A DNA stretch of 63,731 bases, filler included. It is 18 parts of 18 records of this genome, joined end to end, with 100 filler letters (N's around TTAATTAATTAA, not from the genome) between each part and the next. Parts side by side here need not be neighbours in the genome. Positions count along the whole stretch, not along the records: positions 60,444 to 63,731 come from SRR11831580_1823; 17 more parts are not named here. One strand, 5' to 3'. Position numbers and translations under genes: made by a program. Below the pieces are notes generated by a model. That model searched no databases. It saw only the letters and a list, made by a program, of their open reading frames with translations, and was not told the DNA's origin. Shown here one piece after another: positions 33,348 through 63,731 of the stretch. Position 1 is the stretch's first letter; every line of letters begins with the position of its first letter.

Positions 33348-35801
<2,454 letters not shown>

Positions 35802-35835
35802 TGTACTTATAACAACAACGTAAGGTTATTGCGCT

Positions 35836-36234: not shown

Positions 36235-36245
36235 ACGTTTTGTGG

Positions 36246-36271
36246 TGCCGGATGCTCAAGCCGCATCCGGC
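36246..36271. repeat. REP-like palindrome between fadM and queC
   Basis: GCCGGATGC-tcaagcc-GCATCCGGC. Confidence 0.75.
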
Positions 36272-36285
36272 GACACCCGGAATAA

Positions 36286-36981
36286 TTACCTCAACCCGGT
36301 TTTCTGCTTCATCGCTGCCATCACCGTCGGTTTATCGGCCAGATAATGATTCAAACCGTTGGCGCGTAAATTACATGCCGCACAATGACCGCAACCGTCG
36401 CCTTTAAAGCCGTTATAGCAGGTCAACGTTTCGTTACGGACTAAATCCAGTTTGCCGTAATAATCTGCCAGCGCCCAGGTTTCCGCTTTATCAATCCACA
36501 TCAGCGGCGTTTCAAAACGAATATCTTTCGCCATGCCCAAACTGACGGCATGGTTTAGTGCTTTCACAAACTCATCGCGGCAATCCGGGTAGCCGGAGAA
36601 ATCCGTTTCGCAGACGCCAGTAATTACGGCTTCTGCTTTTACCTGATACGCATATATTGCCGCCAGCGTCAGGAACAAAATATTACGCCCTGGGACAAAC
36701 GTATTCGGGATACCATCGGCTTCAGGTTCATAATCAGGCACCGGAATGCTGTCACGCGTCAGGCTACTGACCGCCAGCTCGTTGAGCAGGGTGACATCCA
36801 GCACCTTATGCGCGCGTGCCCCCAGTTTCAGCGCCAGTTCGCGTGCCACGTCGATTTCTGCGCGATGCCGCTGACCGTAATCGAACGTCACGCAATGGAC
36901 TTCATCATATTGTTGTAATGCCTGCACCAGACAGGTGGTGGAATCCTGACCTCCACTGAACACAACGACAGCACGTTTCAT
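36286..36981 (-). CDS. queC: 7-cyano-7-deazaguanine synthase
   Basis: 231 aa, SGGQDS, YPDCR, CGHCAAC. Confidence 0.98.
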
Positions 36982-37045
36982 AGATAATCCTGCTTGAACA
37001 ATAAAAGCGTTATGGTAACGCCTGCGATTAACCCGGACCAGCTAT

Positions 37046-37192
37046 TCATTGCGATGGCGCGGGAAGCCAGGCTTCGGTAAATTCAAACCAGCCGCGCGGT
37101 GTCAGTCGCACACCGTTCACGCCGGGAGGGGCACTAATGCGATAGTGATAGTTGAACAGCGGCGTCAGCGTCGCATCTGTCATTAACTGGCT
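37046..37192 (-). CDS. ybaE: SgrR-family protein, 3' end
   Basis: Reverse strand ends LTPRGWFEFTEAWLPAPSQ*; upstream of queC. Confidence 0.85.
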   Translation of the reverse strand, partial: SQLMTDATLTPLFNYHYRISAPPGVNGVRLTPRGWFEFTEAWLPAPSQ

Positions 37193-42365: not shown

Positions 42366-43078
42366 GCCAGGCCGTTCACACTGCAAAGACACATCAGTGA
42401 TCATGCATACGCACACACAATGAGGGAACGACTGTAGACGGATAAAGAACAAGCAACATGCAAACATGCGCATTAAAGCACAGTAACGTACCCACGAATG
42501 CGGGTGACAAAGACGAGGCGAGGCTCGGGCTCTGCGTAGAAGTTGCCCTGAGCGCGAGCTTGGCGTTTAAGCTGAACAAGCTGCTTCTCCTTCCGGCGGT
42601 ACTCAGTGACGTACTGCTCAGCGCGCTACGAACGGAGACAAATGAGCAACCGAAACAACAAGCGCGACGACGGACATACCTTGAAGATAACCTGGCGCTT
42701 CTTCTTGGCAGCCTAATTGTTTCAAAAAAGCACATAAGCGACCAGTCATGCAGCACACAACCGACCACAACTTACCTGAATGTCGTGGGACAGCTGAGAT
42801 GCTCGCTGTTCCTTGACCTTCTTTTGAGCGGCTCGCTTCTTGAGGAGAGTCTCGGGGACACTACCAACACACAAAAATGCACATGAGCCAAACGTTCAAA
42901 CTCAAACTTACGGTCCATATGACTGCATTAAACGACGCCAAGACGCAAACAGGCCACAAACACTCAGCGATCACAAAGGCACCACATGGGACCGACATCG
43001 AAATCAACATCTCCAAACACAGGAGCAAGCACTGAACGAGCAGCAACAACACGGTATGTACCGGGCAGCGGTCGACAT
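42366..43078 (-). CDS. RPL7: Eukaryotic 60S ribosomal protein L7 (uL30), 5' part, five exons
   Basis: Exons 43078-43062, 42860-42776, 42712-42680, 42625-42492, 42380-42366 give MSTAARVPETLLKKR...VIFKRAEQYVTEYRRKEKQLVQLKRQARAQGNFYAEPEPRLVFVTRIRGVNGL. Confidence 0.93.
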
Positions 43079-43285
43079 TCTATGCAGCGCCGTAAACGTA
43101 AAAGGACCGAACTCCAGTGCGGATGCCTGTTTATGCGGGGTGGCCAGTAACGCAATTCGCGGGCAGTGGCTTCTTCGGGTGTCGCGTGCTATTGCAAGCA
43201 GTGGCGACTACCCCAACATTTGATCTCAAGCCTTCTGATTGGTGCGGTACACGGTACACAGTATGAACACAGTCTGCGAAATCCA

Positions 43286-45184
43286 ATGAGCTTCAACCGC
43301 TACATATTCAGCAGCAACGACATTCACTCACAAGCTGACACGCTCTCGCAATCACAAACAGGGATGATGGGCGCACGGCCGGCTATTGAGTACTCAAACG
43401 GTGCTGCAAAGCGCGTGAATCACAATGTACGAGTGCTCTTGCTAATTTTCCATCGTTTTCAAGTTATTTCAAGTTGTTCCACCAGTACATGTCCCGCCCA
43501 TCCTCACTGAAATGCACAGGATATGGGAGGGTGTTCCCGATTTTCTCAGCCCCAGCACAATGTGCCCGCGTACCAGCCGGGGGGAAGCTACCCAACATCG
43601 GCACCGGGGAGTGAATCGCAATTGCCGTCGCAGAGTGGATCCGATCACGCCGCCCCTGTGCAGAAGATCACGGAGCTCTTGCTGGTGACCAGTAAGCTGC
43701 ACCATTTGCGTGTCGCATTGGAAGGTACGCCTGGGACTCGATTCACCAGTACTGCTGTTGTGGAGATCTCACCCGATCTCCACGAACAACCGTAGCTATG
43801 AACACCCTAGATGTAACACAGTAACGCTAAGCGGTTATCCAAGTGTTAAACGCCCAAAATATTAGTGTCGTTCCGCAGATCTCTTCTCATCTGTGATCTC
43901 TGTGTGTGTGCTCGCAGAGAACTCCATACGCACGCTCGAGACAGACCGCAGAATAGACGCACACACCGCCACACTTCGTGATCTCACCTCCAGCCTACAA
44001 CAACTGATGGTCAATGTAACCAACTTGTCACAACGAGTGGACGGCTACTCGATCGATATCGCACCGATCCAGGACGCTATGCGCGCAGGCACCGAATCTA
44101 CGGCACAGCGTGTCGAGAAGCATGTCACTCAGGCGGTGCGACAAGCTCTGACAGAGATCGTGCCCGTGATTGTGAGAGAGGAGCTGCGCGATGTGCGATC
44201 GTTTACGGACACGGTATGTGGGGGCGGTGTGTGTGAAACACATTTGTTGATCCACGTACAAGCTAGCGGCAATTGAGAGCACTCGAACATCTACACCTTG
44301 TTAAACGCACTCTCACTAGTTGTCGCTATGATATGTATGCGCAGTGCAAGAATTGCATGTTACACACACACTGTTCTCGTCCCCTTATATCGACATACAC
44401 CGTACAACTTACATTTGTGCCTATACATGGGTGTGTATATGGGTGTGCGCCGATGAAGGTTCATCAAGTAGTGGGCAACTTGACACGCGTGGTGGAAGCC
44501 CAGCACACACTGCAACAATCCACACTGCGCGTGCTCGAACAGGTTCGTGTTTGTGTCCCCTCATACGATCGTGTTGGTGAGAGGCCGTCTATCAAGGTGT
44601 GTGTGCGTGTGTTTGTTGGTGTCATATGTAGACAACATGAGAGAGTAACAATCGGTGCGGATCGTGCATGCTGATATGGGGTGTGTTGTTGGTTGCTGCT
44701 TTGCTAGAGATTCGATGACATGCACACAGCCCAACAGCAAACCCACAGCCTCCTACTGAACATCCTCGCAACCCACAACAACACCTCTAGCGCTCCTGTA
44801 CCCCTTATGCACACAGCCAACGCGGCGCACAACATTACCACCGCCGTCCCTGTGAGTGAACCTGACACACAACCCATCCCAACACATACCATCTCGCATC
44901 ACCACAGCTCTGCGGATGCGCCAACCACCACCACAGCCACAAGCATCACTGCCACCGTCGTTCACGCAGAACAGGAACCTAATACTGACACAGCACAAAG
45001 TGACTCACGGCTGTCTCGTCGGCGAACTGACAAGAACAGAAGCAAGGGTGCGCGTGTTGCCAGTCAAGCACGGAAGCAGACACACTCTCGGCAAACTGAC
45101 ACACAGAGCACCACCATTACGACCCCCGTCACAACAGAGACCCCGCCGTGCCCTGCAACTGGCCCTCGTCGCCAGCGCTGGTGA
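43286..45184 (+). CDS. Eukaryotic multi-exon gene: S/Q-rich N-terminus, coiled coil, Thr/His-rich tail
   Basis: Exon-like blocks MSFNRYIFSS, FSQPQHNV...LRVALE, NSIRTLETDRR...VRSFTDT, VHQVVGNL...VLEQ, RFDDMHT...RRQRW* bounded by GT/AG; first junction ambiguous. Confidence 0.55.
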
Positions 45185-45300
45185 TCAACTTGTCACAAAT
45201 NNNNNNNNNNNNNNNNNNNNNNNNNNNNNNNNNNNNNNNNNNNNTTAATTAATTAANNNNNNNNNNNNNNNNNNNNNNNNNNNNNNNNNNNNNNNNNNNN

Positions 45301-46527
45301 GACTGATGAAACACGGGGTCGATGTCAGGGTCGATATCCATCAGACACTCGTCCGTGATGCAGTCGAGCACGGAGAGCCGGCCGTTCACTCTGCACAGGG
45401 AGAGACAGATGCAAGTTGAGTGTGTGTTTTTATGTGTGTATGTGCGCGCGTGCGTGCGGTGAAGTTGTGAGGTTGCGTGTGTAACTCATACACGGATTAC
45501 CCAACACTCTCTCGCACATGACACGTACCCACACATGAGCACACACGAGGACTGCGGCCCAAAGATGGAGCAGTTGACAGCCACCGGCCAGTGCACGGTG
45601 TAGATAGGATCGGGGTCGATGCGCGGCACAGCGTGCGGCTACGATCAGCATGAGCATGCAACACGCACACACACACACACACACACATCCGAACGCAAAG
45701 AATGTACACAAGCACTTGTGGACCATCACCTAAGTGCAGCACCCCTGCATACACACTCACAGGAGCACACACGACAAAACAACCCAGGGACAAGATGAAG
45801 GAAGCAAAGCCATTGTTCGGAGTACCAGCGCTGTTCGCTCAATATATATATACATGTACACATATGTGAGAAAGTACCTGAGCGATGGACTGGTCACACG
45901 CATACACAGACATGGACCCGCTGCTCCCACAACAGCTCACCAGCATCCCGTCGTCCGACCACGCACAATGCCACAACTACACACGCACACACGCACACAC
46001 ATTACAGAAGTTCACGAGGCATCGCCATTGACTCACGCAGTTACTCACAAAGTACTTTTTGCCTTGCATTGCACCTATACATGCTCCCCCAAGCAAAATA
46101 CTCACACACAAGTACTGCACGTACTTCGTTGCCGGATTCAAGGGACTGCAGAGCGGCGTTCGGAAGGGACTCACTGTAGAAGAAGACGGATGAGATCCAT
46201 TCGCAGACTGATTCTTCCATACAAACGTACAGGTTCTGATATACTTGCTTCCAGTTTAGGTTGTCCTGGTTTGTTGCAGGAGCAAAGCGGTCATAGAACA
46301 CACCCTGTGTGTGTTTGACCATCAAGTTTCTCGGCATAACTGGCATACAGCGCTCTACATACCTTCCACAAGAGATTGTCATTGGCGACATCACGCCATC
46401 GGCGGGAAACTTGGGCAGCGCTGCACACTCCCGACGAGGGCAAGTACGAAAATACATGAAGCAGGAGCTCTATTGGCAAGTCATCGATGCAGCAAGCATC
46501 CTCGGTGATCTTCGCACGTTTCGCCAT
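45301..46527 (-). CDS. Eukaryotic F-box/WD40 protein, 5' part, multi-exon
   Basis: IDDLPIELLLHVFSYL...VSRRWRDVANDNLLWK F-box; intron 46305-46362; later exon LWHCAWSDDGMLVSCCGSSGSMSVY is WD40-like. Confidence 0.85.
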
Positions 46528-47427
46528 AAGTAGATGGAGAAACAGGATCGCGCTTGAATGCCTTCACTGTAAGAGCAAGAACTGGAACTGCGCAAATCTG
46601 CTCAGACGTTTTCAGCATGAAACGACGAAACAGACAGCCTTCGATCGAATAGTGCTATCCATCAACACCGTCATCACACCGTGGAAGTTTCCCGTGGTCA
46701 AACATAAACCTGGAGGATTCTATGTTAAGATGTGTCCTAGCATAAACAAAGAGGTGCAGAGCAGAATTTTCTTTTTGATTTCCGTAGGTGTTTGCGACAA
46801 TCGGGTATCTAACAAACACTTCTGTTCAATCGATAGCACGCTAGAGATATCTATGTGCAACCGTGGTGGTTGAATAGGGCTATGCGTTCAACACACGGCC
46901 ACTTATACGGGTCGTATTGCAGCGTGCAGACGTGTGTATCCTCCCGAACCCAGCTCGTAACACCTTACAGCGCCCAGACAGAACAGGAATCACCAACAGA
47001 ACGCATGCACGCCGACATCTGCATAGACCACGAAGACGAGAAACGCAGGGAGGACAATCAGCATACACAGATTCAGACGTAGACAGACACTATTCGTAAA
47101 CAGGTCTACCGCATGTCTGACTGAAATTCGTTCTTCAGTTCATAGCTCTTCCCTAAAGAGTGCAACATACACACAGCACACTACGCTTAAATACACTGCG
47201 ACATAATCGCATAATACACCGCACCGACCGCGGCCGCACCGCTCATCAGATGCACAGGCACGAGACACACAGTCACAGGCAGGGCAGCGGGGGCTGTCCA
47301 CAGGCCGCTCAGATGCAGCACAAGCAGNNNNNNNNNNNNNNNNNNNNNNNNNNNNNNNNNNNNNNNNNNNNTTAATTAATTAANNNNNNNNNNNNNNNNN
47401 NNNNNNNNNNNNNNNNNNNNNNNNNNN

Positions 47428-50263: not shown

Positions 50264-50422
50264 NNNNNNNNNNNNNNNNNNNNNNNNNNNNNNNNNNNNN
50301 NNNNNNNTTAATTAATTAANNNNNNNNNNNNNNNNNNNNNNNNNNNNNNNNNNNNNNNNNNNNCATTGTTTAATTTTCTTCGGGGCGCAATTGCGCCCCC
50401 TCGCATTCGCAGGAATAACGTA

Positions 50423-52078
50423 ATGACTCATCTTCCCCACTGGTGGCAAAACGGCGTTATCTACCAGATTTATCCAAAGAGTTTTCAGGACACCACGGGT
50501 AGCGGTACCGGCGATTTACGTGGCGTTATCCAACACCTGGACTATCTGCATAAACTGGGCGTTGATGCCATCTGGCTAACCCCCTTTTATGTCTCTCCCC
50601 AGGTCGATAACGGTTACGACGTAGCGAACTATACGGCGATTGATCCCACCTACGGCACGCTGGACGATTTTGACGAACTGGTGACGCAGGCAAAATCGCG
50701 CGGGATTCGTATCATTCTCGATATGGTGTTTAACCATACCTCTACCCAACATGCCTGGTTTCGCGAGGCGCTGAACAAAGAAAGCCCTTACCGCCAGTTT
50801 TATATCTGGCGCGATGGAGAACCAGAAACGCCACCGAACAACTGGCGTTCAAAATTTGGCGGTAGTGCGTGGCGCTGGCATGCGGAAAGCGAACAGTACT
50901 ATTTGCATCTCTTTGCACCAGAACAGGCGGATCTCAACTGGGAGAATCCAGCGGTACGCGCAGAGCTGAAAAAAGTCTGTGAGTTCTGGGCCGATCGTGG
51001 GGTCGACGGGTTGCGCCTGGATGTGGTGAATCTGATCTCCAAAGACCCGCGTTTCCCTGAAGACCTGGACGGCGACGGGCGTCGCTTCTACACCGACGGG
51101 CCACGAGCACACGAGTTTTTGCACGAGATGAACCGCGATGTGTTTACGCCACGCGGGTTAATGACCGTAGGTGAAATGTCCTCCACCAGCCTTGAGCATT
51201 GCCAGCGATACGCGGCTCTGACAGGCAGTGAATTGTCGATGACCTTTAATTTTCATCACCTGAAGGTCGATTATCCCGGTGGTGAAAAATGGACGCTGGC
51301 TAAACCTGACTTTGTGGCGTTGAAAACATTGTTCCGCCACTGGCAACAAGGAATGCACAACGTAGCATGGAATGCCTTGTTCTGGTGTAACCACGATCAG
51401 CCGCGCATTGTTTCTCGCTTTGGTGATGAAGGTGAATACCGCGTGCCTGCGGCAAAAATGCTGGCGATGGTGCTGCATGGCATGCAGGGAACGCCGTATA
51501 TCTACCAGGGCGAAGAGATTGGCATGACCAACCCGCATTTCACGCGCATTACTGACTATCGCGACGTAGAGAGCCTCAATATGTTTGCCGAGCTGCGCAA
51601 CGATGGGCGTGATGCCGACGAGTTATTGGCAATCCTCGCCAGTAAATCCCGTGACAACAGTCGCACGCCCATGCAATGGAGCAACGGCGATAATGCCGGG
51701 TTTACGGCTGGCGAACCGTGGATTGGCCTGGGCGATAACTATCAACAAATCAACGTAGAAGCCGCGCTGGCCGATGATTCCTCGGTGTTTTACACCTACC
51801 AAAAGTTAATCGCACTGCGTAAGCAGGAAGCCATCCTGACATGGGGCAATTACCAGGATCTGCTGCCAAACAGCCCTGTATTGTGGTGCTATCGCCGTGA
51901 ATGGAAGGGGCAAACCTTGCTGGTCATTGCCAACCTTAGCCGTGAGATCCAACCCTGGCAGGCAGGGCAAATGCGCGGCAACTGGCAGCTTGTGATGCAT
52001 AACTACGAAGAAGCCTCACCACAACCCTGTGCCATGAATTTACGGCCTTTTGAGGCTGTCTGGTGGTTACAGAAGTAA
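50423..52078 (+). CDS. treC: Trehalose-6-phosphate hydrolase (GH13)
   Basis: ATG 50423 MTHLPHWWQNGVIYQIYPKSF; GLRLDVVN, NHDQPR. Confidence 0.97.
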   Translation: MTHLPHWWQNGVIYQIYPKSFQDTTGSGTGDLRGVIQHLDYLHKLGVDAIWLTPFYVSPQVDNGYDVANYTAIDPTYGTLDDFDELVTQAKSRGIRIILDMVFNHTSTQHAWFREALNKESPYRQFYIWRDGEPETPPNNWRSKFGGSAWRWHAESEQYYLHLFAPEQADLNWENPAVRAELKKVCEFWADRGVDGLRLDVVNLISKDPRFPEDLDGDGRRFYTDGPRAHEFLHEMNRDVFTPRGLMTVGEMSSTSLEHCQRYAALTGSELSMTFNFHHLKVDYPGGEKWTLAKPDFVALKTLFRHWQQGMHNVAWNALFWCNHDQPRIVSRFGDEGEYRVPAAKMLAMVLHGMQGTPYIYQGEEIGMTNPHFTRITDYRDVESLNMFAELRNDGRDADELLAILASKSRDNSRTPMQWSNGDNAGFTAGEPWIGLGDNYQQINVEAALADDSSVFYTYQKLIALRKQEAILTWGNYQDLLPNSPVLWCYRREWKGQTLLVIANLSREIQPWQAGQMRGNWQLVMHNYEEASPQPCAMNLRPFEAVWWLQK

Positions 52079-52089
52079 ATCTTCCCTAA

Positions 52090-52120
52090 GCCCCGGTAAT
52101 GCCGGTCATTCCGGGGTTTT
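52090..52120 (+). terminator. Intrinsic terminator after treC
   Basis: CCCCGG...CCGGGG stem followed by TTTT. Confidence 0.7.
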
Positions 52121-52221
52121 GTCTGTCAGTATGTTGTTTTGTTGATTTTTCAACCAGCAAATTCATTAAAAAATTTACATATCGCTGTAGCGCCCGTCAT
52201 CCGTACGCTCTGCTTTTTACT

Positions 52222-52309
52222 TTGAGCTACATCAAAAAAAGCTCAAACATCCTTGATGCAAAGCACTATATATAGACTTTAAAATGCGTCCCAACCCAAT
52301 ATGTTGTAT
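52222..52309 (+). promoter_or_regulatory. nrdD promoter: FNR-like site and two NrdR-like boxes
   Basis: TTGAG-CTAC-ATCAA (52222-52235); GCACTATATATAGACT (52263-52278); ACCCAATATGTTGTAT (52294-52309). Confidence 0.7.
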
Positions 52310-52358
52310 TAATCGACTATAATTGCTACTACAGCTCCCCACGAAAAAGGTGCGGCGT

Positions 52359-52444
52359 TGTGGATAAGCGGATGGCGATTGCGGAAAGCACCGGAAAACG
52401 AAACGAAAAAACCGGAAAACGCCTTTCCCAATTTCTGTGGATAA
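52359..52444. promoter_or_regulatory. Two DnaA-box matches in the nrdD leader
   Basis: TGTGGATAA at 52359-52367 and 52436-52444. Confidence 0.55.
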
Positions 52445-52470
52445 CCTGTTCTTAAAAATATGGAGCGATC

Positions 52471-54609
52471 ATGACACCGCATGTGATGAAACGAGACGGC
52501 TGCAAAGTGCCGTTTAAATCAGAGCGCATCAAAGAAGCGATTCTGCGTGCAGCTAAAGCAGCGGAAGTCGATGATGCCGATTATTGCGCCACTGTTGCCG
52601 CGGTTGTCAGCGAGCAGATGCAGGGCCGCAACCAGGTGGATATCAATGAGATCCAGACCGCAGTTGAAAATCAGCTGATGTCAGGTCCATACAAACAACT
52701 GGCTCGTGCTTACATCGAGTACCGTCACGATCGCGACATTGAACGTGAAAAACGCGGTCGCCTGAACCAGGAGATCCGTGGTCTGGTCGAGCAGACCAAC
52801 GCCTCGTTACTCAACGAAAACGCCAACAAAGACAGCAAGGTGATTCCAACCCAGCGCGACCTGCTGGCCGGGATCGTGGCTAAACACTATGCACGTCAGC
52901 ACCTGCTGCCGCGTGACGTGGTGCAGGCACATGAGCGTGGCGATATTCACTATCACGATCTCGATTACTCACCGTTCTTCCCGATGTTCAACTGCATGTT
53001 GATCGACCTGAAAGGCATGCTGACCCAGGGCTTTAAAATGGGGAACGCCGAGATTGAACCGCCGAAGTCGATCTCTACGGCAACCGCGGTAACTGCGCAG
53101 ATTATTGCTCAGGTTGCCAGCCATATTTATGGCGGCACCACCATTAACCGTATCGATGAAGTGCTGGCACCGTTTGTCACTGCCAGCTACAACAAACATC
53201 GCAAGACCGCAGAAGAGTGGAACATCCCGGACGCCGAAGGCTACGCTAACTCTCGAACCATCAAAGAGTGCTACGATGCCTTCCAGTCACTGGAGTACGA
53301 AGTAAACACCCTGCACACCGCCAACGGTCAGACGCCGTTTGTAACCTTTGGTTTTGGCCTGGGCACCAGCTGGGAATCGCGCCTGATTCAGGAATCGATC
53401 CTGCGTAACCGTATCGCAGGCCTCGGTAAAAACCGTAAAACTGCGGTGTTCCCGAAACTGGTGTTTGCGATTCGCGATGGCCTGAACCATAAAAAAGGCG
53501 ATCCGAACTACGACATCAAACAGCTGGCGCTGGAGTGCGCAAGCAAGCGCATGTATCCGGATATCCTGAACTACGATCAGGTAGTGAAAGTCACCGGTTC
53601 GTTTAAAACTCCGATGGGCTGCCGCAGCTTCCTCGGCGTGTGGGAAAATGAAAACGGCGAGCAGATCCACGATGGTCGTAACAACCTCGGCGTGATCAGC
53701 CTGAACCTGCCGCGTATTGCTCTGGAAGCAAAAGGCGATGAAGCCACCTTCTGGAAGCTGCTGGATGAACGTCTGGTGCTGGCACGTAAGGCGCTGATGA
53801 CCCGTATCGCTCGTCTCGAAGGCGTGAAAGCGCGCGTGGCCCCGATCCTCTATATGGAAGGTGCTTGTGGCGTGCGTCTCAATGCTGACGATGATGTTTC
53901 TGAAATCTTCAAAAACGGTCGTGCGTCTATTTCGCTGGGTTACATCGGCATCCACGAAACCATTAACGCGCTGTTCGGCGGCGAGCATGTTTACGACAAC
54001 GAGCAGCTTCGCGCGAAAGGTATCGCCATTGTTGAACGTCTGCGTCAGGCAGTGGATCAGTGGAAAGAAGAAACGGGTTATGGTTTCAGTCTCTACAGCA
54101 CGCCGAGTGAAAACCTGTGCGATCGCTTCTGCCGTCTCGATACTGCTGAGTTTGGCGTGGTGCCGGGCGTGACCGATAAAGGTTACTACACCAACAGTTT
54201 CCACCTCGATGTGGAGAAGAAGGTGAACCCGTACGACAAGATCGACTTTGAAGCGCCTTACCCGCCGCTGGCGAACGGTGGTTTCATTTGCTACGGCGAG
54301 TATCCAAACATTCAGCACAACCTGAAGGCGCTGGAAGATGTCTGGGATTACAGCTATCAGCATGTACCGTATTACGGCACCAATACACCGATTGATGAGT
54401 GCTACGAGTGTGGCTTTACCGGTGAGTTCGAGTGCACCAGCAAAGGCTTCACTTGCCCGAAATGTGGTAACCATGACGCCTCCCGTGTGTCGGTAACTCG
54501 CCGCGTGTGCGGATATTTAGGTAGCCCGGATGCACGTCCGTTTAACGCTGGTAAGCAGGAAGAAGTTAAGCGCCGCGTTAAACATTTGGGGAATGGGCAG
54601 ATAGGTTAA
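52471..54609 (+). CDS. nrdD: Anaerobic class III ribonucleotide reductase
   Basis: 712 aa, ATP cone, MGCRSF, two CxxC pairs, RVCGYL glycyl-radical motif. Confidence 0.98.
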   Translation: MTPHVMKRDGCKVPFKSERIKEAILRAAKAAEVDDADYCATVAAVVSEQMQGRNQVDINEIQTAVENQLMSGPYKQLARAYIEYRHDRDIEREKRGRLNQEIRGLVEQTNASLLNENANKDSKVIPTQRDLLAGIVAKHYARQHLLPRDVVQAHERGDIHYHDLDYSPFFPMFNCMLIDLKGMLTQGFKMGNAEIEPPKSISTATAVTAQIIAQVASHIYGGTTINRIDEVLAPFVTASYNKHRKTAEEWNIPDAEGYANSRTIKECYDAFQSLEYEVNTLHTANGQTPFVTFGFGLGTSWESRLIQESILRNRIAGLGKNRKTAVFPKLVFAIRDGLNHKKGDPNYDIKQLALECASKRMYPDILNYDQVVKVTGSFKTPMGCRSFLGVWENENGEQIHDGRNNLGVISLNLPRIALEAKGDEATFWKLLDERLVLARKALMTRIARLEGVKARVAPILYMEGACGVRLNADDDVSEIFKNGRASISLGYIGIHETINALFGGEHVYDNEQLRAKGIAIVERLRQAVDQWKEETGYGFSLYSTPSENLCDRFCRLDTAEFGVVPGVTDKGYYTNSFHLDVEKKVNPYDKIDFEAPYPPLANGGFICYGEYPNIQHNLKALEDVWDYSYQHVPYYGTNTPIDECYECGFTGEFECTSKGFTCPKCGNHDASRVSVTRRVCGYLGSPDARPFNAGKQEEVKRRVKHLGNGQIG

Positions 54610-54631
54610 TCTTCACTCTGAGCTAAGCAAA

Positions 54632-54657
54632 TGCCGGATGCGGCGTAAACGCCTTAT
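54632..54657. repeat. REP element (partial) at contig end
   Basis: TGCCGGATGCGGCGTAAACGCCTTAT. Confidence 0.9.
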
Positions 54658-54832
54658 NNNNNNNNNNNNNNNNNNNNNNNNNNNNNNNNNNNNNNNNNNN
54701 NTTAATTAATTAANNNNNNNNNNNNNNNNNNNNNNNNNNNNNNNNNNNNNNNNNNNNCAAACCGCGCACACACAATACGCAGCGTCACTAGCGGCCATAA
54801 CCCACTAAAACACGCACACACGATACACAGCG

Positions 54833-56286
54833 TTACGGATGCCATGCCCCCGCCTGCTGAGCGTGCCCCCTCCCGCAGAAATCATGCATACGTCCTGAGG
54901 ACTCGACAAAGACGGGGTTCTGACACCCACTGAGTTTGCAGCGGGGGAGCGAGCCGCCCTGCATGGTAGGGGGACCCGTACTTGCTGCAGAAACGCATTG
55001 GAAAAACAAGAGACGCGAGAGAGAGAAAGCGCGCGCGCGAAAGAGAACGGGGGAAATGCGAATGCAAACTCACGCACAGAAAAGCAGACAGTAAGGACAA
55101 CGGTCGCAGCAGAGTCGAAGACAAACCTGTGCAAGACCACAAGCGCAGACGTGCACACACGCCCACACGTGTGTAAACATACAAAAAATACGTATACATC
55201 ATAAACGTGAACAGGGATGGCGCATACAGGCAGAAGGAGCGGAGTGACCGTCCTGCGCATGCAGCAGAGCATGCTCACGGGAACAGCATTCAAAGGTGCG
55301 GCCTGTACGCTGGTCACGCGCTTTGGGACGGCGACAGTCTCGGTATGCACACACTAGAGACACCGATGAGACGCAGCACAAACCAAGCCACATGCACCGC
55401 GCAGTGAGATAAGACCGCCCCAACGTACTTGTTGCAGCACCTGCGATTCCCGCGATTGCGATCTGCACGCCAAGTTCCAGGGACAGTTGCGCCACCTCCT
55501 CCGGACGAAGAGCTTCTTGCTTGTGCTTCGTGCGCTCGTGAGAGCACTTGCACACAGTCGCACGCGAATCTACACTCAGAAAACGTCAGCCACATGCAGA
55601 TCCCCAGGACACGCCCGTGCTCCCAAGCGGAGAACCAAGTGCATACTGACACAGTGCTGGGAGCAACGATACATTGCGGTCCACACCACACCGTACACGA
55701 CCCACTCCCACAAACTGCACCGTCCCGACCACGCACCACCGGACCACCCCAGACACGGACAGCCTCGCACGATGCAGGGCCCCTGCGCAGGAACGTAATC
55801 TGGTTTCGAGGGCAGCGGGACTGTGGTGTTTGACTGCAGCGGTGTGTAGGTGTACTTGGCAGGCACGGGAGCGGGGTACGACGTAGGCGGGGGCTGTGAG
55901 TACTGCTGTGCATGTGTGAAGGGCAACGGGGGCGCTTGCAGGGGCGGTGCTGTCTGTTGTTGTTGCGGGTAATTGTACTGTTGTGGAGGAGCTTGTGGGT
56001 ATGAGGGTGCAAATTGAGGGGGGTATGTGGTCCCCGATGAGGGAGGACTCGGGTAGACCGGCTGTGCGTACGGAGCCCCGTATGGTTGCTGAGACGATTG
56101 TGGAAAGGAAGGCTGGGGATAAGGTTGTTGGTACGGAGTGGGATTAGGTTGCTGATATGAGGGTTGAGGATAGGGACTCGGGTTGGGGATATTGTGCACT
56201 GTGGCAGCATGTCCGCATCGACACGTATCGTAATGGGCCAAAACGACGCCGAAACACGCACATTGACTACATCGATTGTTCATCAT
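54833..56286 (-). CDS. Eukaryotic ~322-aa Pro/Tyr/Gln-rich protein with four Cys/His clusters
   Basis: Exons 56286-55737, 55569-55429, 55353-55228, 54984-54833 join in phase (969 nt) and end HAQQAGAWHP*. Confidence 0.75.
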
Positions 56287-57006
56287 CGCGGTGATTCGGA
56301 TGGCAAATGGTTATGAATCGGAATATTATGTCGGACTGTACAGGTGCGCGGAGTACACAGCAAAGTGAAAGTTTTGAGGAGGAAACAGAAAAGCCAACAT
56401 AAGCTTGTCAGTGACTCCTCGCTCTCGGCAACGACGCTCGGAAATTTCTGATGACACATGCTTTCGATAATCTACGTCGCTGCTGGTTTGCACTGCTGCA
56501 TCATGGTATTAGGTTCGTGTGTGCTTGAGGGATGGAGAGCTACTCCGAGTGGGGAACAAACAGAGACGCGGACGCTCTCACGTATTTACTTGAAATTAAG
56601 CGCACTATATAATCATCAATAAAATAAAACCACGGTTCTCCGCGACAAACTCACTCATCACTCCACTCGGAACGAACACACGTTCGCCCGAGCACTAACA
56701 CATCTTAGCCCGACCCTTCTTTCACACAAAGGCCCAGCACTATTTCCCACCACCCACCCAATCCCAACAATCTAACAGTTCCGATCACTTGAAGGCACCA
56801 CACGAAACGCAGACACAGCGGTACTAGTGTGTGGTACACAGGCACCGCCGATGCCCAGGCTCGCCCTGCAGTTGCGACGCTGCAGACTCAGTTGGCGAAC
56901 GATAACNNNNNNNNNNNNNNNNNNNNNNNNNNNNNNNNNNNNNNNNNNNNTTAATTAATTAANNNNNNNNNNNNNNNNNNNNNNNNNNNNNNNNNNNNNN
57001 NNNNNN

Positions 57007-59710
57007 GACTAGCACCGTTCTTCGTTTGTATGGGTGCACATGTGTTTCTCGAGCATCTGTTGTCGTGTGCAAATCCCCCCTGCCCCCATATGCGTTCTCA
57101 CTCCGCCTCTCTGTGCGTGCAGTGTCGTACCGTCTTTCGCTTCTTGCGTTCCACAATCATGACTCCATGCTGGTTTCGGAGGGAGAGGGTGACGGGCGTG
57201 TTGTGTTCTGGGACGTATCGCTTATGGTGTCCGCGTACTGGGCTGCCAAGGACGACGAGGTGTGTATATGGGGGTAGCGTACTACACCGTCGTGTGGTGG
57301 TGGTGGTGTAGTGGTTGGGGTAGCTTCGTATCCGCGAGTGTGTGTGAGGATGCGGCTTTGTTGATGTGCCGTGGTGTTTTATTCCGCCCTGTACATTCTC
57401 GGTTTATGTACGTCACGCACTTGACTCATCCATTATGTATCTGGGTTTGTGGTTACGTGTGCGTATGTGTGTATGCGTGCAGAGTATTGCCGATGCCGCA
57501 TCGTCCGCCTTCATCACACAAGAGTCCAGCCGTCCCTTCGGTAGTGTCCTCAGGCGTCCCTTCCCAACCGCCGGCCCTCGACCGTTCCCTACCGTCGGAA
57601 CCGTCGGAACGGTAGACAGCTCATTCTCCCGTCCGTTCGATAGCGTTGAACTGATTCCACCGGCGGGTGCGCCTGTGTGGGGCGGGCCCAAGCCTCAACC
57701 CTCTATGATTATGCACGATCCGAGGGCTGTGTTCCCTTCTGTGGTGGAGACACGCCATTACAAGCACCAGCTGGTGACGATCGATAACGGGAAGACGTTC
57801 GCGACGCAGGACTTTAATGTGTCTCTGACGGGGTCTATATCGATGTATGTACTACGGCTCGGTGTGGGTGATAATGGTTGTGTCTGGCGTCCATCTTGTA
57901 TGATGTACGCTCTCTGTGCGTGTCTGTCTCTTCGTTCTCTTCCTATACATCTTACTGTCTGTCTTTCTCCTCCCACCACGGTTTCTTCGTTCTACCTCCT
58001 ATCTCTCTATCACTTACTTACTGCGTGTGTACCCTCCTTACTAGGATCAAAGTGCTTGACAGTCCCCCGTGTGCTGTGCTCGGCACCGCAGAGGGGCATG
58101 TCGCCATCTATGATTTTGAGGGGCAGCTTTATGGCACACTCTCTCAGAACGAGAGTGCGAAATGGTCCTTCCCGTTTAGTGTGCTGGAGGCGGCAGAGCA
58201 CAAGCTCATGGCCTCGAAGAAGGTACTGTGCGTGGTGGGTGGGCTGACTTACTTGTTGGCGTCTTTGCCGTTGATGTTGTTGTGGTGATGATGATGATGG
58301 TGACGTGGTCGGTGTTACGTGGGGCTGGTATGTTACACACGGTTAGCAGCTTCGTGCACCGAAGGATGTTCTGTCCGATACGTGTGGTATATGTATGTGT
58401 GTGTTCTTATCACGATCGCTAACCTTGACGACTACTAATCATCATTCTTTCTGTTTTGTTTGTCTCTCTGTCTCTTTGTGTGGGACCGCAGTTACTGGAA
58501 GAAGGTGTTCCCACTGCTGCCCTGCTCTCCATCTCTCCCAGTGCATCGGACGCCTCGCTCAAGTTTGCGGTGCCGCCCCGACGAAGAACACGCGAAGAGT
58601 ACGTAACACTGTGCGCTCGTAAACCGCACGCTGCAACTCGAGGACGTGTTAGTTACGCGTGTATGTGTTTGATTCTGTGCCTGTGTTGTTTGCCTGGTGC
58701 TGGTTGATGATGTTGACATTGAATTCTGTTTCGTGTGGTATGTTGTGCGTTGCAGAGAGACAGACCCTGTGTTGCGTTGTCTTCTGCCCCCGTCAATGGA
58801 GGAGCGCGCAGCCCAACCACATATGAAGAAAGGTACGGTACTTGGTTGCTGTCGTTCATGTTTCAGTGAGTGTATTCTGTTCGTGTTGCAGGTCCGTGTT
58901 TGCATTTGACTGTACGTGTCTGCGAGCTGTTTCAAGCGCGTATCTTCATTGAATTCTGCGTGCTCGCATCCTCTAAGTATGATGTGCAGACAAGCCAAAG
59001 ATTACTACGTTCAGCCGTTCGCCAGTGAAGCGAAATGTACAAAAGCAGGCGCAGTCAATTCTGGAACGGGTATGTGCGTATGCGCGCAATGGCGTGCGCA
59101 GGAACTGTCTGTTGTGTTTTGTCTTACATGGTCTGCCGTGCTGTACTTCTCACTGTATGTGCATGTTGGTGGCTCACCGTCGTATCTTGTTGCGTTGCAG
59201 ATCGAAACGGAAGCCGTGCTCAAATCAGGCAACGCCGGGAACACCGACGCGGAGATCGAGCTCATGAAGGGATTTCTGCAGCGCGATATCATGCACCGAA
59301 GAGCTGCCTCCTCGCTGGGTCGTCCTCTCAAGGGCACGTTCTTCTCTCCGACCTCCAGCTCCTACATGACCGACCACAGCTCCCCGAGCCCCACCGACGA
59401 ACGCTCTCTCACACCCATCCCGAGTTCGGATGGGCTGCTGCGAGCACCGCAGGCCCGGGACCACTCACGTTCGCACAGGCGGGTGTCTGTGGTGCGTGCG
59501 TTCAGTAGCACGAGGCGCGAATCGCTGTTTCCTGTGAACGATTCGAGAAGGTCCAGTGCCTCTTGGGGCGTGAACAGCTCGCCGTCGGGGTCGAACGATC
59601 GATTAGGCGGCGTTTCGAGCGATGACGATAACAATGACCGGACGGCCAGTCGTAAGCGTCTGCCGCTGATTAAGAAGTTGACGAGGCAAGTCGCATCGCT
59701 CAAGTATTAA
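57007..59710 (+). CDS. Eukaryotic multi-exon WD40-like protein, 3' part with Ser-rich tail
   Basis: MLVSEGEGDGRVVFWDV and AVLGTAEGHVAIYDFEGQLYGTL blade-like segments; GT-AG introns; final exon ends VASLKY*. Confidence 0.6.
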
Positions 59711-60449
59711 TGGTAAAGACAGCTCTTAGTTTTGTGGATATAGACTGTAAGATAAGAGATTGGCTCTAGCTAGCGCGTAGCACCCTTGATTTTATGAAAT
59801 GATACGTATTATTCAGTGTGTAAGTAGTTAGTAATTAGTAGTGTGACCTAAATTGTCACTATATTTTCGTATATCGTTACAATAGACTGCTACTTAGTAC
59901 ATATAATCATATACCTTTAGTGATACTAATGGTTACATGGCGGGAACTCAACCCGCGTACACAGTTCCCCACGCATACACTGACAGCTCACAGCGAACAC
60001 ACACATACGCCTTCACCTGCGTTGTTGAACGGCAGCTGACGCGGTCAACTTGGCTCGCTGCATAAAGTCTACGGCAGCCGCCTCGTGTCGACGCACAGCC
60101 CTCGTGAGCGACGATGGCGTCACATAATTTAACTGTCGCTCTATTACGCTGTCGAGTGGGGTACTCGAAGAAGAATCATCCCTCTGTGCGTCACCGATGG
60201 TGGTGCTATACGGACCGGCAGGGGAGACGTCATTACGACCCGACCACGAGGCAGATGAGCGAGTGAGTGGCCGCGCGAACGCTGTGGATGACGAAGCTGA
60301 GGAATAGGAGAGAATTTGTGTGTTGCGCGGCTCACGGTCGGTGNNNNNNNNNNNNNNNNNNNNNNNNNNNNNNNNNNNNNNNNNNNNTTAATTAATTAAN
60401 NNNNNNNNNNNNNNNNNNNNNNNNNNNNNNNNNNNNNNNNNNNAACGCC

Positions 60450-62651
60450 TTGCCGCCGTCGGTGCCGTTTGCGCCCGTCCGCCCGACGCCGGATCCCATT
60501 GTTACGGGTGCGTCCCTTCCTTCTCTTCCCGATCAACCTCTTTCGTCCGTTCCTTCGGCATCTCCTCCACTTCCGTTCGCTGTTGCAGCCGTGCCTCCAG
60601 CCTTCGTTCCGTCCTCCCTTCCATTTCCCATCCTTCCCTCTCCGCCGACCGTTGCAGCCCCGCCTCCGGTCTCGCCTGCTCTCGTCCTCTCAACCCCGTC
60701 CCTGCCGTCACCATCACCGCTCGCAGATCGAGCCTCTGTCGTCGGCCGGCTGTGCCGTTTCCATCCTATCTGGCGCCAAGCTGGTGCCGATCCGCTCACC
60801 CTCTCGTGGCTCGCTCAGGGCGTTCCGATCTTGTTCGACCAGCTGCCGCGCATTCCGCCCCCTCGTCCCAACATCATCAGCACGACGGAGCAGCTCGAGT
60901 TCGTACGCAAGGAGGTGGCTACCATGTTGTCCATCGGCGCCGTCTCCCCGTCCCCTCACCGCCCGCTCGCCGTGTGGCAGCTCCTGACCGCGCCCAAGGC
61001 CGGGTCGCGTCGCTTTCGCCTGGTGGTCAACATGAAGCCGCTCACCCCGTCCGTCCACAGCCCCGCCTTCAAGCTCGAGCGCCTGGACGAGTTTCTCATG
61101 TTGCTACGGCCCGGGGACCATATCTGGACCCGCGACCTTCGCGACGGCTATTTTCACCTGGCCATGGCGCCTTCATCCCGGCCATTCCTCGGCTTCCAAC
61201 TCGACGGCCGCTACTTCGTGTACAATGTCCTACCCTTCGGTCTCCGCAGCGCGCCCTTCGTCTTCACCAAGATGATGCGTACCCCGCTTCGCTTGCTTCG
61301 CACTGCGGATATCACGTGTATCGGCTACATCGACGACATAGCCGCGTGCTCACCGCCGGCTCAATCGGAGCGCAAGGCGCAGTTCTGCGACGACACGCTT
61401 CACCGCCTGGGCCTCGTGGTCGCCGAAGACAAGAAGCAGCAACCCGCCCATCGGGCCATTGTGCTCGGCATGCAACTCGACACCGTGCTCAACCGATTGT
61501 CACTCCCCGACGACAAGCTGGCCAAGACATTGGCTCTGCTTCGCGCCGTCATCACTATCGCTTCGCGGCCTTCGCATCGGGTGCCAGCGCAACTCATCGC
61601 GCAGCTATTGGGCAAGTTGCAGTGGTTCGCTCGGGCCGCCCCAGCCGTCCGTCTCTACGCACGATCGCTCCAGTACGACCTGCGCCAGCGCACGTCGTGG
61701 TACGACCGTCTGCTGCTTCGCCTCGAGACCCGCCGCGACCTGGCGCTCATCTCGCGCAACGCTGTGGCCTGGAACAACCAAGGCTGCCCCATCTGGCGCA
61801 ACAACCCGACCGTCCAGGTATTCACCGACGCCAGCAACGTGGGTTGGGGTGCCGCCATGCTGGTCAACGGCCACCTCTCGCAGTGTATCTCGGGCCAGTG
61901 GGACTCGGTCTGGCAGCAGCAACACATCAACGCCAAGGAACTGCAGGCCGTCCTGTTGGCTATCCGCGCCTACCTACCGCAGATGACCGCCGCCGCGGTG
62001 GAGTTCCGCATCGACAACATATCCGCCGTGGCCTACCTACGCAACTGCGGGGGATATTTTCCGCATCTGGCAGCCATCGCCAAGCAGGCGTTGACGCTTT
62101 TGATGTCTGTTGGCGCCCAGTCGTCGTTTCATCATCTCCGCGGCGTGCTCAACATCGTCGCCGACGCTCTCTCCCGCGGTCACTTCCATCCTGTGCTCAC
62201 GCAGCAGCACGGCCAGTTCGACCCGGACGACTGGCAACTCGATCCGCGACTGTTCCGCCAGCTCGACGCCCTTTGGGGTCCCCACACCGTGGATCGCTTC
62301 GCCCGTGTACGGTCGCGTCAAGTGTCTCGCTTTTGGTCGCGCGTTCTGGAGCCTGGCTGCGAGGGAGTCAACTCGCTTACCGCCGACTGGTCCGCCGACA
62401 ACAACTGGGTCAACCCGCCGTTCGCCATGCTCCTTGCCGTGCTGCGCCACATCGTCAACTGCCGTGCCCGGGCCACCGTCATTGCACCCCACTGGCCAGC
62501 ACAGACCTGGTGGCCGCTGCTATGCAAGATCGCGACCGCCTGGCTCCTGCTTCCCTCGCCAATGAAGTATCCCAACCGCCTGGCCGAACCGCTGCGCAAC
62601 CCGTCCTGGCGCCTGTTCGCCGTGCGCGTGGACGGCTCCCGTCTGCAGTGA
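60450..62651 (+). CDS. Reverse transcriptase-RNase H-Dam-like methyltransferase polyprotein (true start uncertain)
   Basis: RT: FRLVVN, DLRDGYFH, LPFGL, YIDD (61326); RNase H: FTDAS (61821), HINAKEL, IDN, NIVADALSR; MT: DDWQL, VDRFA, NWVNPPF (62412), IAPHWPAQTWWP. Confidence 0.92.
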   Translation: MPPSVPFAPVRPTPDPIVTGASLPSLPDQPLSSVPSASPPLPFAVAAVPPAFVPSSLPFPILPSPPTVAAPPPVSPALVLSTPSLPSPSPLADRASVVGRLCRFHPIWRQAGADPLTLSWLAQGVPILFDQLPRIPPPRPNIISTTEQLEFVRKEVATMLSIGAVSPSPHRPLAVWQLLTAPKAGSRRFRLVVNMKPLTPSVHSPAFKLERLDEFLMLLRPGDHIWTRDLRDGYFHLAMAPSSRPFLGFQLDGRYFVYNVLPFGLRSAPFVFTKMMRTPLRLLRTADITCIGYIDDIAACSPPAQSERKAQFCDDTLHRLGLVVAEDKKQQPAHRAIVLGMQLDTVLNRLSLPDDKLAKTLALLRAVITIASRPSHRVPAQLIAQLLGKLQWFARAAPAVRLYARSLQYDLRQRTSWYDRLLLRLETRRDLALISRNAVAWNNQGCPIWRNNPTVQVFTDASNVGWGAAMLVNGHLSQCISGQWDSVWQQQHINAKELQAVLLAIRAYLPQMTAAAVEFRIDNISAVAYLRNCGGYFPHLAAIAKQALTLLMSVGAQSSFHHLRGVLNIVADALSRGHFHPVLTQQHGQFDPDDWQLDPRLFRQLDALWGPHTVDRFARVRSRQVSRFWSRVLEPGCEGVNSLTADWSADNNWVNPPFAMLLAVLRHIVNCRARATVIAPHWPAQTWWPLLCKIATAWLLLPSPMKYPNRLAEPLRNPSWRLFAVRVDGSRLQ

Positions 62652-63670
62652 TGATCGACGCTGCTGATCCGCTGCTCCCTGCCGACCCCTCCGCCAATCC
62701 TTGGGCCGATCCAGCTCCCTCTACCGCCGCCGCGCGCCTCCTCTCGCTAGCCCGTATCGGCGCCTCTTACTCGGTTTCCCAGCGCACGCAGTCACGCTAT
62801 CGCGCACATACCGACGCCTTTGGCCGGTTCTGTCTGTTACACGGCTTTGATCCGCTTCCTGCGACTGTGCAGGCTGTGCTTGCCTTCTGCGGTCATGCCA
62901 TGGACTCTGGCCGCTCGCGCCAGTTGTCAACCGTCCTGACAGCCGTGGCGCATCAACACAAGTCGCATGGCTTCTGGTCCCCGACTCAGCATCCCGCCGT
63001 GTCCCAAGTCCGCAAAGGTATTGCTCGATGGACCGCCACTCACCATCCACGTGTTGCCCGTTGGCGCCAGCCACTTCGACCGCACCATGTGCGACGTTGC
63101 TTCAACCTCGCTGACATGTCCGACCCGTGGACGGCGCAGGCGCTTGCTGTGCTTGCTTTCGGCCTCCGCATAGGCCAGCGCGCCTCGACTCTTGGCCACC
63201 TGCGCTTGGATGACATCCATTTTGGCCGCGAACACGTGTCCGTGTACATTGGACGTAGCAAGACTGATCAGGAGGGGCGAGGTCGATACATCTACATCGA
63301 TTTGCCCACTACGGATGCTCCGGCTTATCATCCCGTGCTGCTCCTGCGCCATCACCTGCGCATCAACCACATCACCACCGGCCCTCTGTTCCGCCTGTTC
63401 AAGGACCGGACGTACATCACAACCCGACCGCTGGCTGGCCGTGGTGTCAACTTAGTGGTCAAGTGGTGCTGCTTTGACATGCTTGGCCTCTCGGGCGATT
63501 ATTCGGGCCACAGCATTCGCATCGGCGCTGCAACAGCCATGTCTGAGGCCGGTGTCGAGGATCACGTCATCCGCCAGACCTGTGGCTGGAAAGGGCCCTA
63601 CTCTAACGTGTACTTGCGTTTTGCCCGCACTTCGCGCGGTGATTTGACTCGAGCTATTGGTCTGGCGTGA
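62651..63670 (+). CDS. Tyrosine recombinase, 339 aa from ATG 62651
   Basis: N-terminal helical domain then GQRAS (R), SKTDQ (K), GHSIRIGAAT (HxxR), CGWK (W), VYLR (Y). Confidence 0.92.
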   Translation: MIDAADPLLPADPSANPWADPAPSTAAARLLSLARIGASYSVSQRTQSRYRAHTDAFGRFCLLHGFDPLPATVQAVLAFCGHAMDSGRSRQLSTVLTAVAHQHKSHGFWSPTQHPAVSQVRKGIARWTATHHPRVARWRQPLRPHHVRRCFNLADMSDPWTAQALAVLAFGLRIGQRASTLGHLRLDDIHFGREHVSVYIGRSKTDQEGRGRYIYIDLPTTDAPAYHPVLLLRHHLRINHITTGPLFRLFKDRTYITTRPLAGRGVNLVVKWCCFDMLGLSGDYSGHSIRIGAATAMSEAGVEDHVIRQTCGWKGPYSNVYLRFARTSRGDLTRAIGLA

Positions 63671-63731
63671 TCATGTCTGCACGTCTTAGTGTCTCTAGTT
63701 CTTCTTCATCATGTGCTTGTGCATGTCTGTA

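Follow-up and report, generated by a model that had tools for sequence, protein, structure and literature searches.

A probable DIRS-order retrotransposon, cut at its 5' end, with a conserved methyltransferase-fold domain whose catalytic asparagine is labile among relatives

Introduction

What does a methyltransferase-fold domain do at the C-terminus of a retrotransposon polyprotein when its catalytic residue is replaced in many relatives? Our study takes up this question from the contig at positions 60444-63731 of a stretch of DNA of 63,731 nucleotides (the window), which, with good confidence as to both its identity and its architecture, is a 5'-cut piece of a DIRS-order (tyrosine-recombinase) retrotransposon from a eukaryote. 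An earlier description made from the letters of the window (the sequence-only reading) had claimed for this contig a DIRS-type fusion of reverse transcriptase (RT), ribonuclease H (RNase H) and methyltransferase domains that retains the motif NPPF and is followed by a complete recombinase, and both parts of that description are borne out here. The same reading called the role of the methyltransferase in DIRS elements unresolved, which holds for the literature in print; the purpose of this domain is a 20-year-old question, and our findings sharpen it. A conserved domain with a labile catalytic residue, together with a fold neighbor among the RNA-cap methyltransferases, leads to three alternatives: a writer on DNA, a writer on RNA and a binding scaffold. 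The contig adds one incompletely assembled family, from a contaminated assembly, to a well-described order of retrotransposons, and does not represent a new kind of element.

Results

Two genes on the + strand account for nearly all of the contig. The first is a pol open reading frame (ORF) of 735 codons and a TGA stop (60444-62651), open at the 5' end of the contig. Its RT domain (residues 210-345, 61071-61478) is matched by Pfam RVT_1 (residues 210-344, E 5e-14) and holds the YIDD motif at residues 295-298 (61326-61337) and the aspartate of motif A at D231. The RNase H domain (residues 455-579, 61806-62180) is recognized from structural matches of the Ty3 type and from its acidic residues D462 (61827-61829), E499 (61938-61940), D524 (62013-62015) and D574 (62163-62165), all of which are invariant in eight of eight members of the element's clade; its Pfam matches are weak, covering residues 455-525 at E 0.003-0.3 and lying below the cut-offs (RT_RNaseH, E 0.0028). 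Residues 137-598 of pol align to solved RT/RNase H structures, reaching through RNase H to the sequence NIVADALSR, with 8r0s ('enzymatic polyprotein', E 1.7e-17) and the Ty3 RT/RNase H structures 7q5b and 4ol8 (about 1e-14) as the best matches. The methyltransferase-fold domain (residues 594-735, 62223-62648) completes the frame. In the element and its seven closest relatives YIDD, the RNase H acidic residues, DRFA and NPPF are invariant except at N657 and A620. Chance is excluded as an explanation because of the Pfam E-values and the 735-codon open frame, and the uninterrupted frame that had been described, with YIDD, the RNase H acidic motifs and a domain bearing DRFA and NPPF, is found as claimed at 60444-62651.

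The traits of the DIRS order are present: the RT and RNase H are related to those of Ty3/gypsy, and the element carries a tyrosine recombinase, with no DDE integrase match on the contig. A Pfam search of 60444-63731 gave no match to integrase or protease families. Ngaro and VIPER are excluded because the methyltransferase domain sits at the C-terminus of pol, and such a domain is absent in both. The closest public proteins are 69% identical for pol and 87% identical for the recombinase, and both are unnamed; the family is probably undescribed, as judged from these unnamed public proteins rather than from Repbase or Dfam. A search for pol relatives in 185,579 prokaryotic genomes returned 23 pattern matches, none of which was confirmed.

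The second gene is a Cre-like tyrosine recombinase ORF of 339 amino acids (62651-63670), which matches PF00589 (E 7.7e-9) and PHROG integrase families. As a single sequence it is only weakly similar to Cre (phmmer E 0.0018), and this alignment places the Cre tyrosine on F324. A profile built from the recombinase and 11 relatives matches residues 27-337 of the 343 in Cre at E 2.5e-31, and aligns R177 (63179-63181), K204 (63260-63262), H287 (63509-63511), R290 (63518-63520), W313 (63587-63589) and Y321 (63611-63613) with the R-K-H-R-W-Y set of Cre. W313 is invariant in the eight close recombinases, and the other five residues in all 12 that were aligned. Because the profile spans Cre 27-337 with the catalytic set aligned, the ORF from its own ATG encodes a complete two-domain Cre-like enzyme; the full R-K-HxxR-W-Y recombinase that the sequence-only reading placed after pol is upheld by this alignment. 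The recombinase ATG starts at 62651, on the A that ends the first pol TGA (62649-62651), so that start and stop overlap by one base, and a second in-frame TGA follows this stop; the tandem stop TGATGA and the overlapping ATG lie within 62646-62656. This arrangement would suit termination-reinitiation, and the recombinase starts at about the same place in five of seven close relatives.

A side observation concerns the relatives of this enzyme. Those nearest to the recombinase outside the element's clade (P0186-P0189) have its RSKTDQEG-G box; one of them is named by its source as a site-specific integrase from a Roseiflexaceae bacterium, and the other three are unnamed or called only 'integrase'. 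Their sequences are a hint that a prokaryotic lineage of Cre-like enzymes lies close to the DIRS recombinases.

The reading frame of the recombinase extends without a stop through the whole of pol (60446-62650, + strand), is open at the 5' end of the contig and contains a single ATG. Over the 735 pol codons this frame has no stops, as against 8 in the third forward frame and 12, 16 and 29 in the reverse frames; when synonymous codons of pol were shuffled, the recombinase frame had 13.6 stops on average, and none of 5000 shuffles reached zero. The avoidance is specific to context: pol codons ending in T precede codons starting with AA, AG or GA in 0 of 89 cases, versus 34 of 236 before codons starting with AC, AT, GC, GG or GT (Fisher p 1.8e-5), and the non-overlapping recombinase ORF shows no such avoidance at its codon junctions (10/36 versus 36/126). 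We considered a general avoidance of T/A junctions (TpA) as the cause and rejected it: contexts that begin with the same base but make no stop escape this avoidance, and in the non-overlapping recombinase ORF TpA is not avoided either. The recombinase frame is thus actively kept stop-free through all of pol by context-specific selection. ATGs are not significantly depleted in the overlap (1 observed, 2.3 expected), the recombinase is complete without the overlapping open frame, and no long recombinase proteins (595-2000 amino acids) were found among the relatives, which is weak evidence.

The stop-free frame is the long ORF overlap of DIRS1-type elements, a feature reported from DIRS-1 and from half of the 28 DIRS1-like elements that were annotated in the source, where overlaps are said not to be usual in Ngaro and VIPER (PMC3266345). 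The feature is accordingly already known in DIRS1-like elements, where it is unexplained. From this overlap we lean towards a DIRS1-like rather than a PAT-like element, in a comparison that termini and named references lie outside.

The copy is a 5'-cut piece and not a demonstrably intact element. Its pol frame runs open as far as the contig's first base, directly after an assembly linker, and reaches its first methionine only at residue 161; in relatives the protein begins 10-110 residues upstream of a conserved DRA-VVG box, which here occupies residues 94-100. The pol start codon is therefore placed outside the contig. Residues 1-95 of pol (60444-60728) form a Pro/Ser-rich stretch of low complexity in which GC by codon position is 0.72/0.66/0.56, compared with 0.66/0.47/0.81 in the rest of pol, and all three forward frames are open there, so that the true coding frame at the start of the contig is uncertain. 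On the 3' side, 61 bp follow the recombinase stop to the end of the contig and window (63671-63731). When the contig was searched for repeats, terminal or internal complementary, only chance-level pairs emerged, the longest of 27 nt at 78% identity; with only 61 bp 3' of the recombinase and the 5' end missing, such repeats or an internal complementary region could not show. The two genes comprise 1,074 codons of unbroken coding sequence. The sequence-only reading had called the element intact and perhaps young, and neither description is supported: pol is cut by the contig end, gag and terminal repeats do not lie on the contig and only 61 bp remain after the recombinase, while blastn and tblastn searches against all 18 contigs of the window returned only self matches, and in a window with no second copy the age of this one is not estimable.

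The methyltransferase domain was identified in several comparisons. Dam (PF05869) is the only Pfam family that it matches (residues 594-680, E 6.7e-6), and in PHROG it matches family 111, 'DNA methyltransferase', at E 9.9e-7. Its motifs include VDRFA (62289-62303, with DRFA at residues 617-620, 62292-62303), W649 (62388-62390) and NPPF at residues 657-660 (62412-62423), which satisfies the motif IV pattern (D/N/S)PP(Y/F/W). It follows directly on RNase H, and no WW or helical domain of the kind seen in CAPAM was matched in Pfam. An AlphaFold model of residues 580-735, computed with 51 relatives as alignment rows, has a Rossmann-type methyltransferase fold (predicted local distance difference test, pLDDT, 90.4; predicted TM-score, pTM, 0.85).

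Searching the PDB with this model gave CAPAM/PCIF1 structures as the top six matches (E 5.5e-5 to 4.9e-4; TM-score of the query, TMq, 0.62-0.68), followed by the rRNA adenine dimethyltransferases KsgA, Dim1 and TFB1M, and no DNA Dam was among the 47 matches listed. In a library of viral folds (BFVD), phage DNA N6-adenine methyltransferases came first (E 2.5e-8, TMq 0.64-0.72) and giant-virus PCIF1-WW proteins next (E 8e-6 to 8e-5). Sequence comparison with the PDB was less informative: the single methyltransferase sequence gave only chance matches (E 0.05 or worse), and a profile found no methyltransferase or CAPAM chain at E up to 10, recovering only RNase H chains through its flanking alignment columns. 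One of the nearest Atlas clusters carries the automatic name of a PCIF1 WW protein fragment. On the model, the fold lies between phage Dam and PCIF1, slightly nearer to phage Dam. Two origins have been put forward in the literature, a derivation of the DIRS1 methyltransferase from cellular PCIF1, in the portion used here of Iyer, Zhang and Aravind, 2016 (PMC4738411), and a single acquisition of a prokaryotic DAM, in that of a preprint by Fernandez-Moreno et al., 2026 (10.64898/2026.05.21.726589).

The domain belongs to a very large family: a HMMER comparison of residues 560-735 with 1.84 billion representatives found 7,051 clusters at E <= 0.001, of which 2,040 reach E <= 1e-10. In 24 relatives found with the whole of pol as the query and aligned over all four pol domains, the methyltransferase core (residues 594-700) was the most conserved domain in 17, and in distant relatives its identity is typically 40-52%, versus 26-32% for RT. 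Relaxed selection on this domain, which the sequence-only reading had named as an outcome that would tell against it, is therefore not what is seen at the protein level. Of 169 aligned methyltransferase domains, 167 retain the aspartate of VDRFA and all 169 have W649; D617, W649 and P659 are invariant or nearly so, and N653 and N654 are highly conserved.

The catalytic asparagine behaves differently. The first residue of motif IV is asparagine in 87 of the 169 domains, and elsewhere it is valine (38), cysteine (22), phenylalanine (9), alanine (4), histidine (4), tyrosine (2), or serine, aspartate or leucine (1 each). Among 73 full-length sequences (550-900 residues, the query included) the asparagine is present in 44 and replaced in 29. 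A tree of the RT-RNase H region requires at least 15 changes between asparagine and other residues, of which 11 are forced by well-supported branches, and the well-supported clade of eight that contains the element is itself divided, with asparagine in this copy, P0003, P0008 and P0034, and FPPF, FPPW, FPPL or CCPF in the other four. In relatives that are intact in other respects, N657 has repeatedly given way to phenylalanine, valine or cysteine. The ratio of methyltransferase to RT identity is 1.29 in asparagine-bearing and 1.17 in other sequences, a comparison biased by the selection of sequences on their methyltransferase domains.

The window in which the element was found is a series of 18 small contigs, each 2.0-6.7 kb long, with 17 identical linkers of the form N44-TTAATTAATTAA-N44 between them, for example at 6661-6760 and at 60344-60443, the latter marking the 5' end of the element's contig; the linkers carry no strand and separate contigs, so that features on either side of one are not physically linked. 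The element fills the whole of the last contig (3,288 bp), which has no sequence in common with the other 17. A scan of the whole window against Rfam gave no matches. At least four contigs (1-6660, 12453-15962, 33055-37192 and 50364-54657) match E. coli genomes at 99.9-100% identity, their best matches including the K-12 laboratory strains XL1-Blue, TOP10 and MG1655, and carry kefB-fkpA, aceK, ppiD-queC and treC-nrdD; most other contigs up to 54657 have enterobacterial Pfam content. The E. coli-identical contigs look, from their sequence, like cloning-host contamination of the assembly. At 15093-15962 a minus-strand ORF with a match to the ShET2 enterotoxin N-terminal family (E 4e-92) adjoins aceK on an E. 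coli K-12-like contig, where reference records annotate espL4; this ORF belongs to the contaminant and not to the eukaryote.

Other contigs are of a different character. At 37629-38329 an SNF2-related domain is divided between two minus-strand ORFs (E 1.8e-13 and 1.5e-4), which on a contig not resembling E. coli suggests exons of a eukaryotic gene. The contigs at 6761-12352, 42366-45200, 45301-47327, 54758-56906 and 57007-60343 contain long ORFs and no E. coli-like genes; they have no Pfam match except one marginal match to FAM220, none of them resembles the DIRS contig, and they presumably come from the sequenced eukaryote. For the 60 ORFs taken from six contigs without E. coli-like genes, the Pfam scan found only the split SNF2 domain and one marginal match.

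Discussion

Our analysis of the DIRS contig, coupled with what is known of the family, suggests a model in which the RNA of the element would be copied into cDNA by its RT and RNase H, and the recombinase would insert this cDNA by site-specific recombination in place of a DDE integrase. The intermediates of DIRS-1 have been described as mostly linear single-stranded cDNA in the relevant part of Malicki et al., 2020 (PMC7192593). In such a cycle what is conserved in the methyltransferase domain may be its ability to bind S-adenosylmethionine and/or an adenine flipped out of the RNA template or of the single-stranded cDNA. The domain would then be a scaffold resembling a pseudo-enzyme, for which methyl transfer is an optional extra that could have been retained in this NPPF copy. 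The inactive partners of the METTL14 type, in which motif IV is degenerate, offer a parallel by analogy only. We prefer such a binding-first role tentatively, at somewhat short of an even chance; that the domain has a role other than binding or writing on DNA or RNA is a good deal less probable. A related view was taken by Iyer et al. (PMC4738411), who, in the portion used here, predicted that all DIRS1 methyltransferase domains are probably inactive and suggested that they bind template transcripts or mimic PCIF1.

Of the competing accounts, the one that survives best holds that the domain is an active DNA N6-adenine methyltransferase, which would mark the cDNA or RNA-DNA hybrid of the element either for protection or as a permissive mark for insertions. 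This copy has NPPF, D617 and W649, conservation of the domain is strong and its closest matches in sequence and in fold are phage DNA N6-adenine methyltransferases (Dam 6.7e-6, PHROG 111 9.9e-7, BFVD 2.5e-8); DAM-bearing long terminal repeat (LTR) elements are moreover reported to be enriched in N6-methyladenine (6mA) (Fernandez-Moreno et al., 2026). These points are countered by the loss of the catalytic asparagine from 29 of 73 full-length sequences although the domain is retained, and by results given in the consulted portion of the same preprint, in which DAMs from DIRS elements, LTR elements and adintoviruses produced no rise in 6mA in dam-deficient E. coli, DIRS DAMs bore no consistent relation to host 6mA, and the domain was said to have neither CD-1 nor TR-1 of bacterial Dam; the prediction of inactivity by Iyer et al. 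points in the same direction. We regard this account as unlikely, while still deserving of weight. It also includes the idea, raised in the sequence-only reading, that the element methylates its own cDNA: the premises of this idea stand, in that the domain is conserved and NPPF is kept here, but the loss of the asparagine in 29 of 73 sequences and the negative assay in E. coli tell against it. The idea is not new, as the preprint has already proposed that reverse-transcription intermediates may receive 6mA from DAM (Fernandez-Moreno et al., 2026).

A second account has the domain acting on RNA in the manner of CAPAM/PCIF1, either methylating or binding an adenosine of the element's own transcript, next to the cap or in the template, or mimicking PCIF1 at RNA polymerase II. 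The catalytic motif of PCIF1 is also NPPF. The ranking of CAPAM in the top six PDB fold matches, ahead of KsgA, Dim1 and TFB1M and with no DNA Dam among the matches listed, is in keeping with such a role, as are the giant-virus PCIF1-WW fold matches and the Atlas cluster named after a PCIF1 WW fragment; against this ranking it must be set that the phage Dam family may be missing from the PDB altogether, in which case CAPAM would come first for that reason. Phage DNA methyltransferases outscore the PCIF1 proteins in the viral library, Dam is the only Pfam family matched, the methyltransferase profile reaches no CAPAM chain of the PDB even when matches up to E 10 are admitted, and the WW and helical domains of CAPAM have no Pfam match here. 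Iyer et al. placed the DIRS1 methyltransferase in the PCIF1 clade and suggested transcript binding or PCIF1 mimicry (PMC4738411, in part), and action on RNA would accord with the negative outcome of the E. coli DNA assay (Fernandez-Moreno et al., 2026). On balance a role on RNA seems improbable.

A more specific version, which we consider improbable to the same degree, is that of a CAPAM/PCIF1-type module that is no DNA methyltransferase at all and works on an adenosine of element RNA, next to the cap or in the template, live in NPPF copies and reduced to a binding-only pseudo-enzyme in the at least 11 lineages in which the asparagine has been replaced. Such a module would account for the methyltransferase being the best-conserved part of pol, for the failure of assays for 6mA in DNA and for the success of DIRS elements in hosts that have no 6mA. 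In our literature search, PCIF1, DIRS and retrotransposons were brought together only by Iyer et al., 2016, and no link to N6,2'-O-dimethyladenosine (m6Am) of the cap, a chemistry discovered later than that paper, was found; NPPF was not found paired with retrotransposons, nor CAPAM with a retrotransposon or tyrosine recombinase among the matches listed. The clade assignment and transcript binding are already in the part of Iyer et al., 2016 (PMC4738411) used here.

Several considerations weigh against our account, both of the contig as a piece of a DIRS element and of its methyltransferase as a binding module. The gag gene, the start of pol and the terminal repeats do not lie on the contig, so that completeness and the choice between DIRS1 and PAT type are not shown, and the GC content of the contig is 0.63, compared with 0.46-0.56 in the other 17. 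The Dam match scores 26.3 bits, just below the gathering cut-off of 28.1, at an E-value that is still significant. For the binding-first role in particular, the full NPP triplet is kept in 61 of 169 relatives and in this copy, and Asn-Pro-Pro is reported in almost all of the DAMs sampled by Fernandez-Moreno et al., 2026, in the part of that preprint drawn on here. The 150 representatives in our comparison were picked by their similarity to this methyltransferase domain and may include decaying copies; the tree was built with FastTree only, from RT-RNase H columns of unnamed proteins, and gave long-branch warnings. The negative assay in E. coli may moreover reflect misfolding or the wrong substrate, as its authors note (Fernandez-Moreno et al., 2026).

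The last alternative, which we consider doubtful, is that the contig is foreign to the organism the window represents, being either a stray of other eukaryotic origin or a lone dead fragment, and it would void any claim about family and host. At least three of the 18 linker-joined small contigs are 99.9-100% E. coli K-12 laboratory strains, most of the others bear enterobacterial genes, and the DIRS contig, at GC 0.63 against 0.46-0.56, has no sequence in common with the rest of the window. On the other side, the GC content of transposons is often unlike that of their host, several other contigs look eukaryotic, such as that with the SNF2 domain split over two ORFs, and the lack of any break in the 1,074 codons of the two ORFs argues against an old dead fragment. 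The same surroundings and the same difference in GC leave the claim of the sequence-only reading about the host of this family unsupported.

A comparison with known systems places the element most closely beside the DIRS1-like elements, such as DIRS-1 of Dictyostelium (Piednoel et al., 2011, PMC3266345). The order of domains in pol (RT-RNase H-methyltransferase), the downstream recombinase, the long overlap of the recombinase frame with pol and an RT/RNase H nearest to Ty3/gypsy are shared; DIRS1-like elements also have gag, inverted terminal repeats as well as an internal complementary region, none of which is visible on this 5'-cut contig. The PAT-like elements, TOC and kangaroo, which form the sister group of the DIRS1-like elements, likewise combine RT-RNase H-methyltransferase with a tyrosine recombinase. 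They are bounded by split direct repeats and some carry an inverted recombinase, whereas here the recombinase has the same orientation as pol; with the termini beyond the contig, a PAT-like identity, if less favored, may still apply.

The recombinase can be compared with Cre of phage P1, both domains of which are covered by the profile with R-K-H-R-W-Y aligned; it differs from Cre in its low pairwise similarity (phmmer E 0.0018) and in being part of a retroelement. For the methyltransferase the nearest comparison is phage Dam (PF05869), the best fold in the viral library (E 2.5e-8), with (D/N)PP(Y/F) after strand 4. In contrast to phage Dam, the domain of the element, of about 150 residues, is fused behind RNase H, falls below the gathering cut-off of the family and has an asparagine that is labile in relatives. 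CAPAM/PCIF1 is the best solved structural neighbor, and the DIRS1 methyltransferase has been placed in the PCIF1 clade (PMC4738411, in the portion used here); CAPAM/PCIF1 acts on capped RNA and has WW and helical domains, whereas the methyltransferase of the element is without these and goes undetected by sequence profile. The DAM-carrying LTR retrotransposons have, according to the part of the preprint drawn on here, a DAM of the same eukaryotic family, said to be derived from DIRS elements, together with LTRs, integrases and a link to host AMT1 and 6mA (Fernandez-Moreno et al., 2026), where the element reported here has a tyrosine recombinase.

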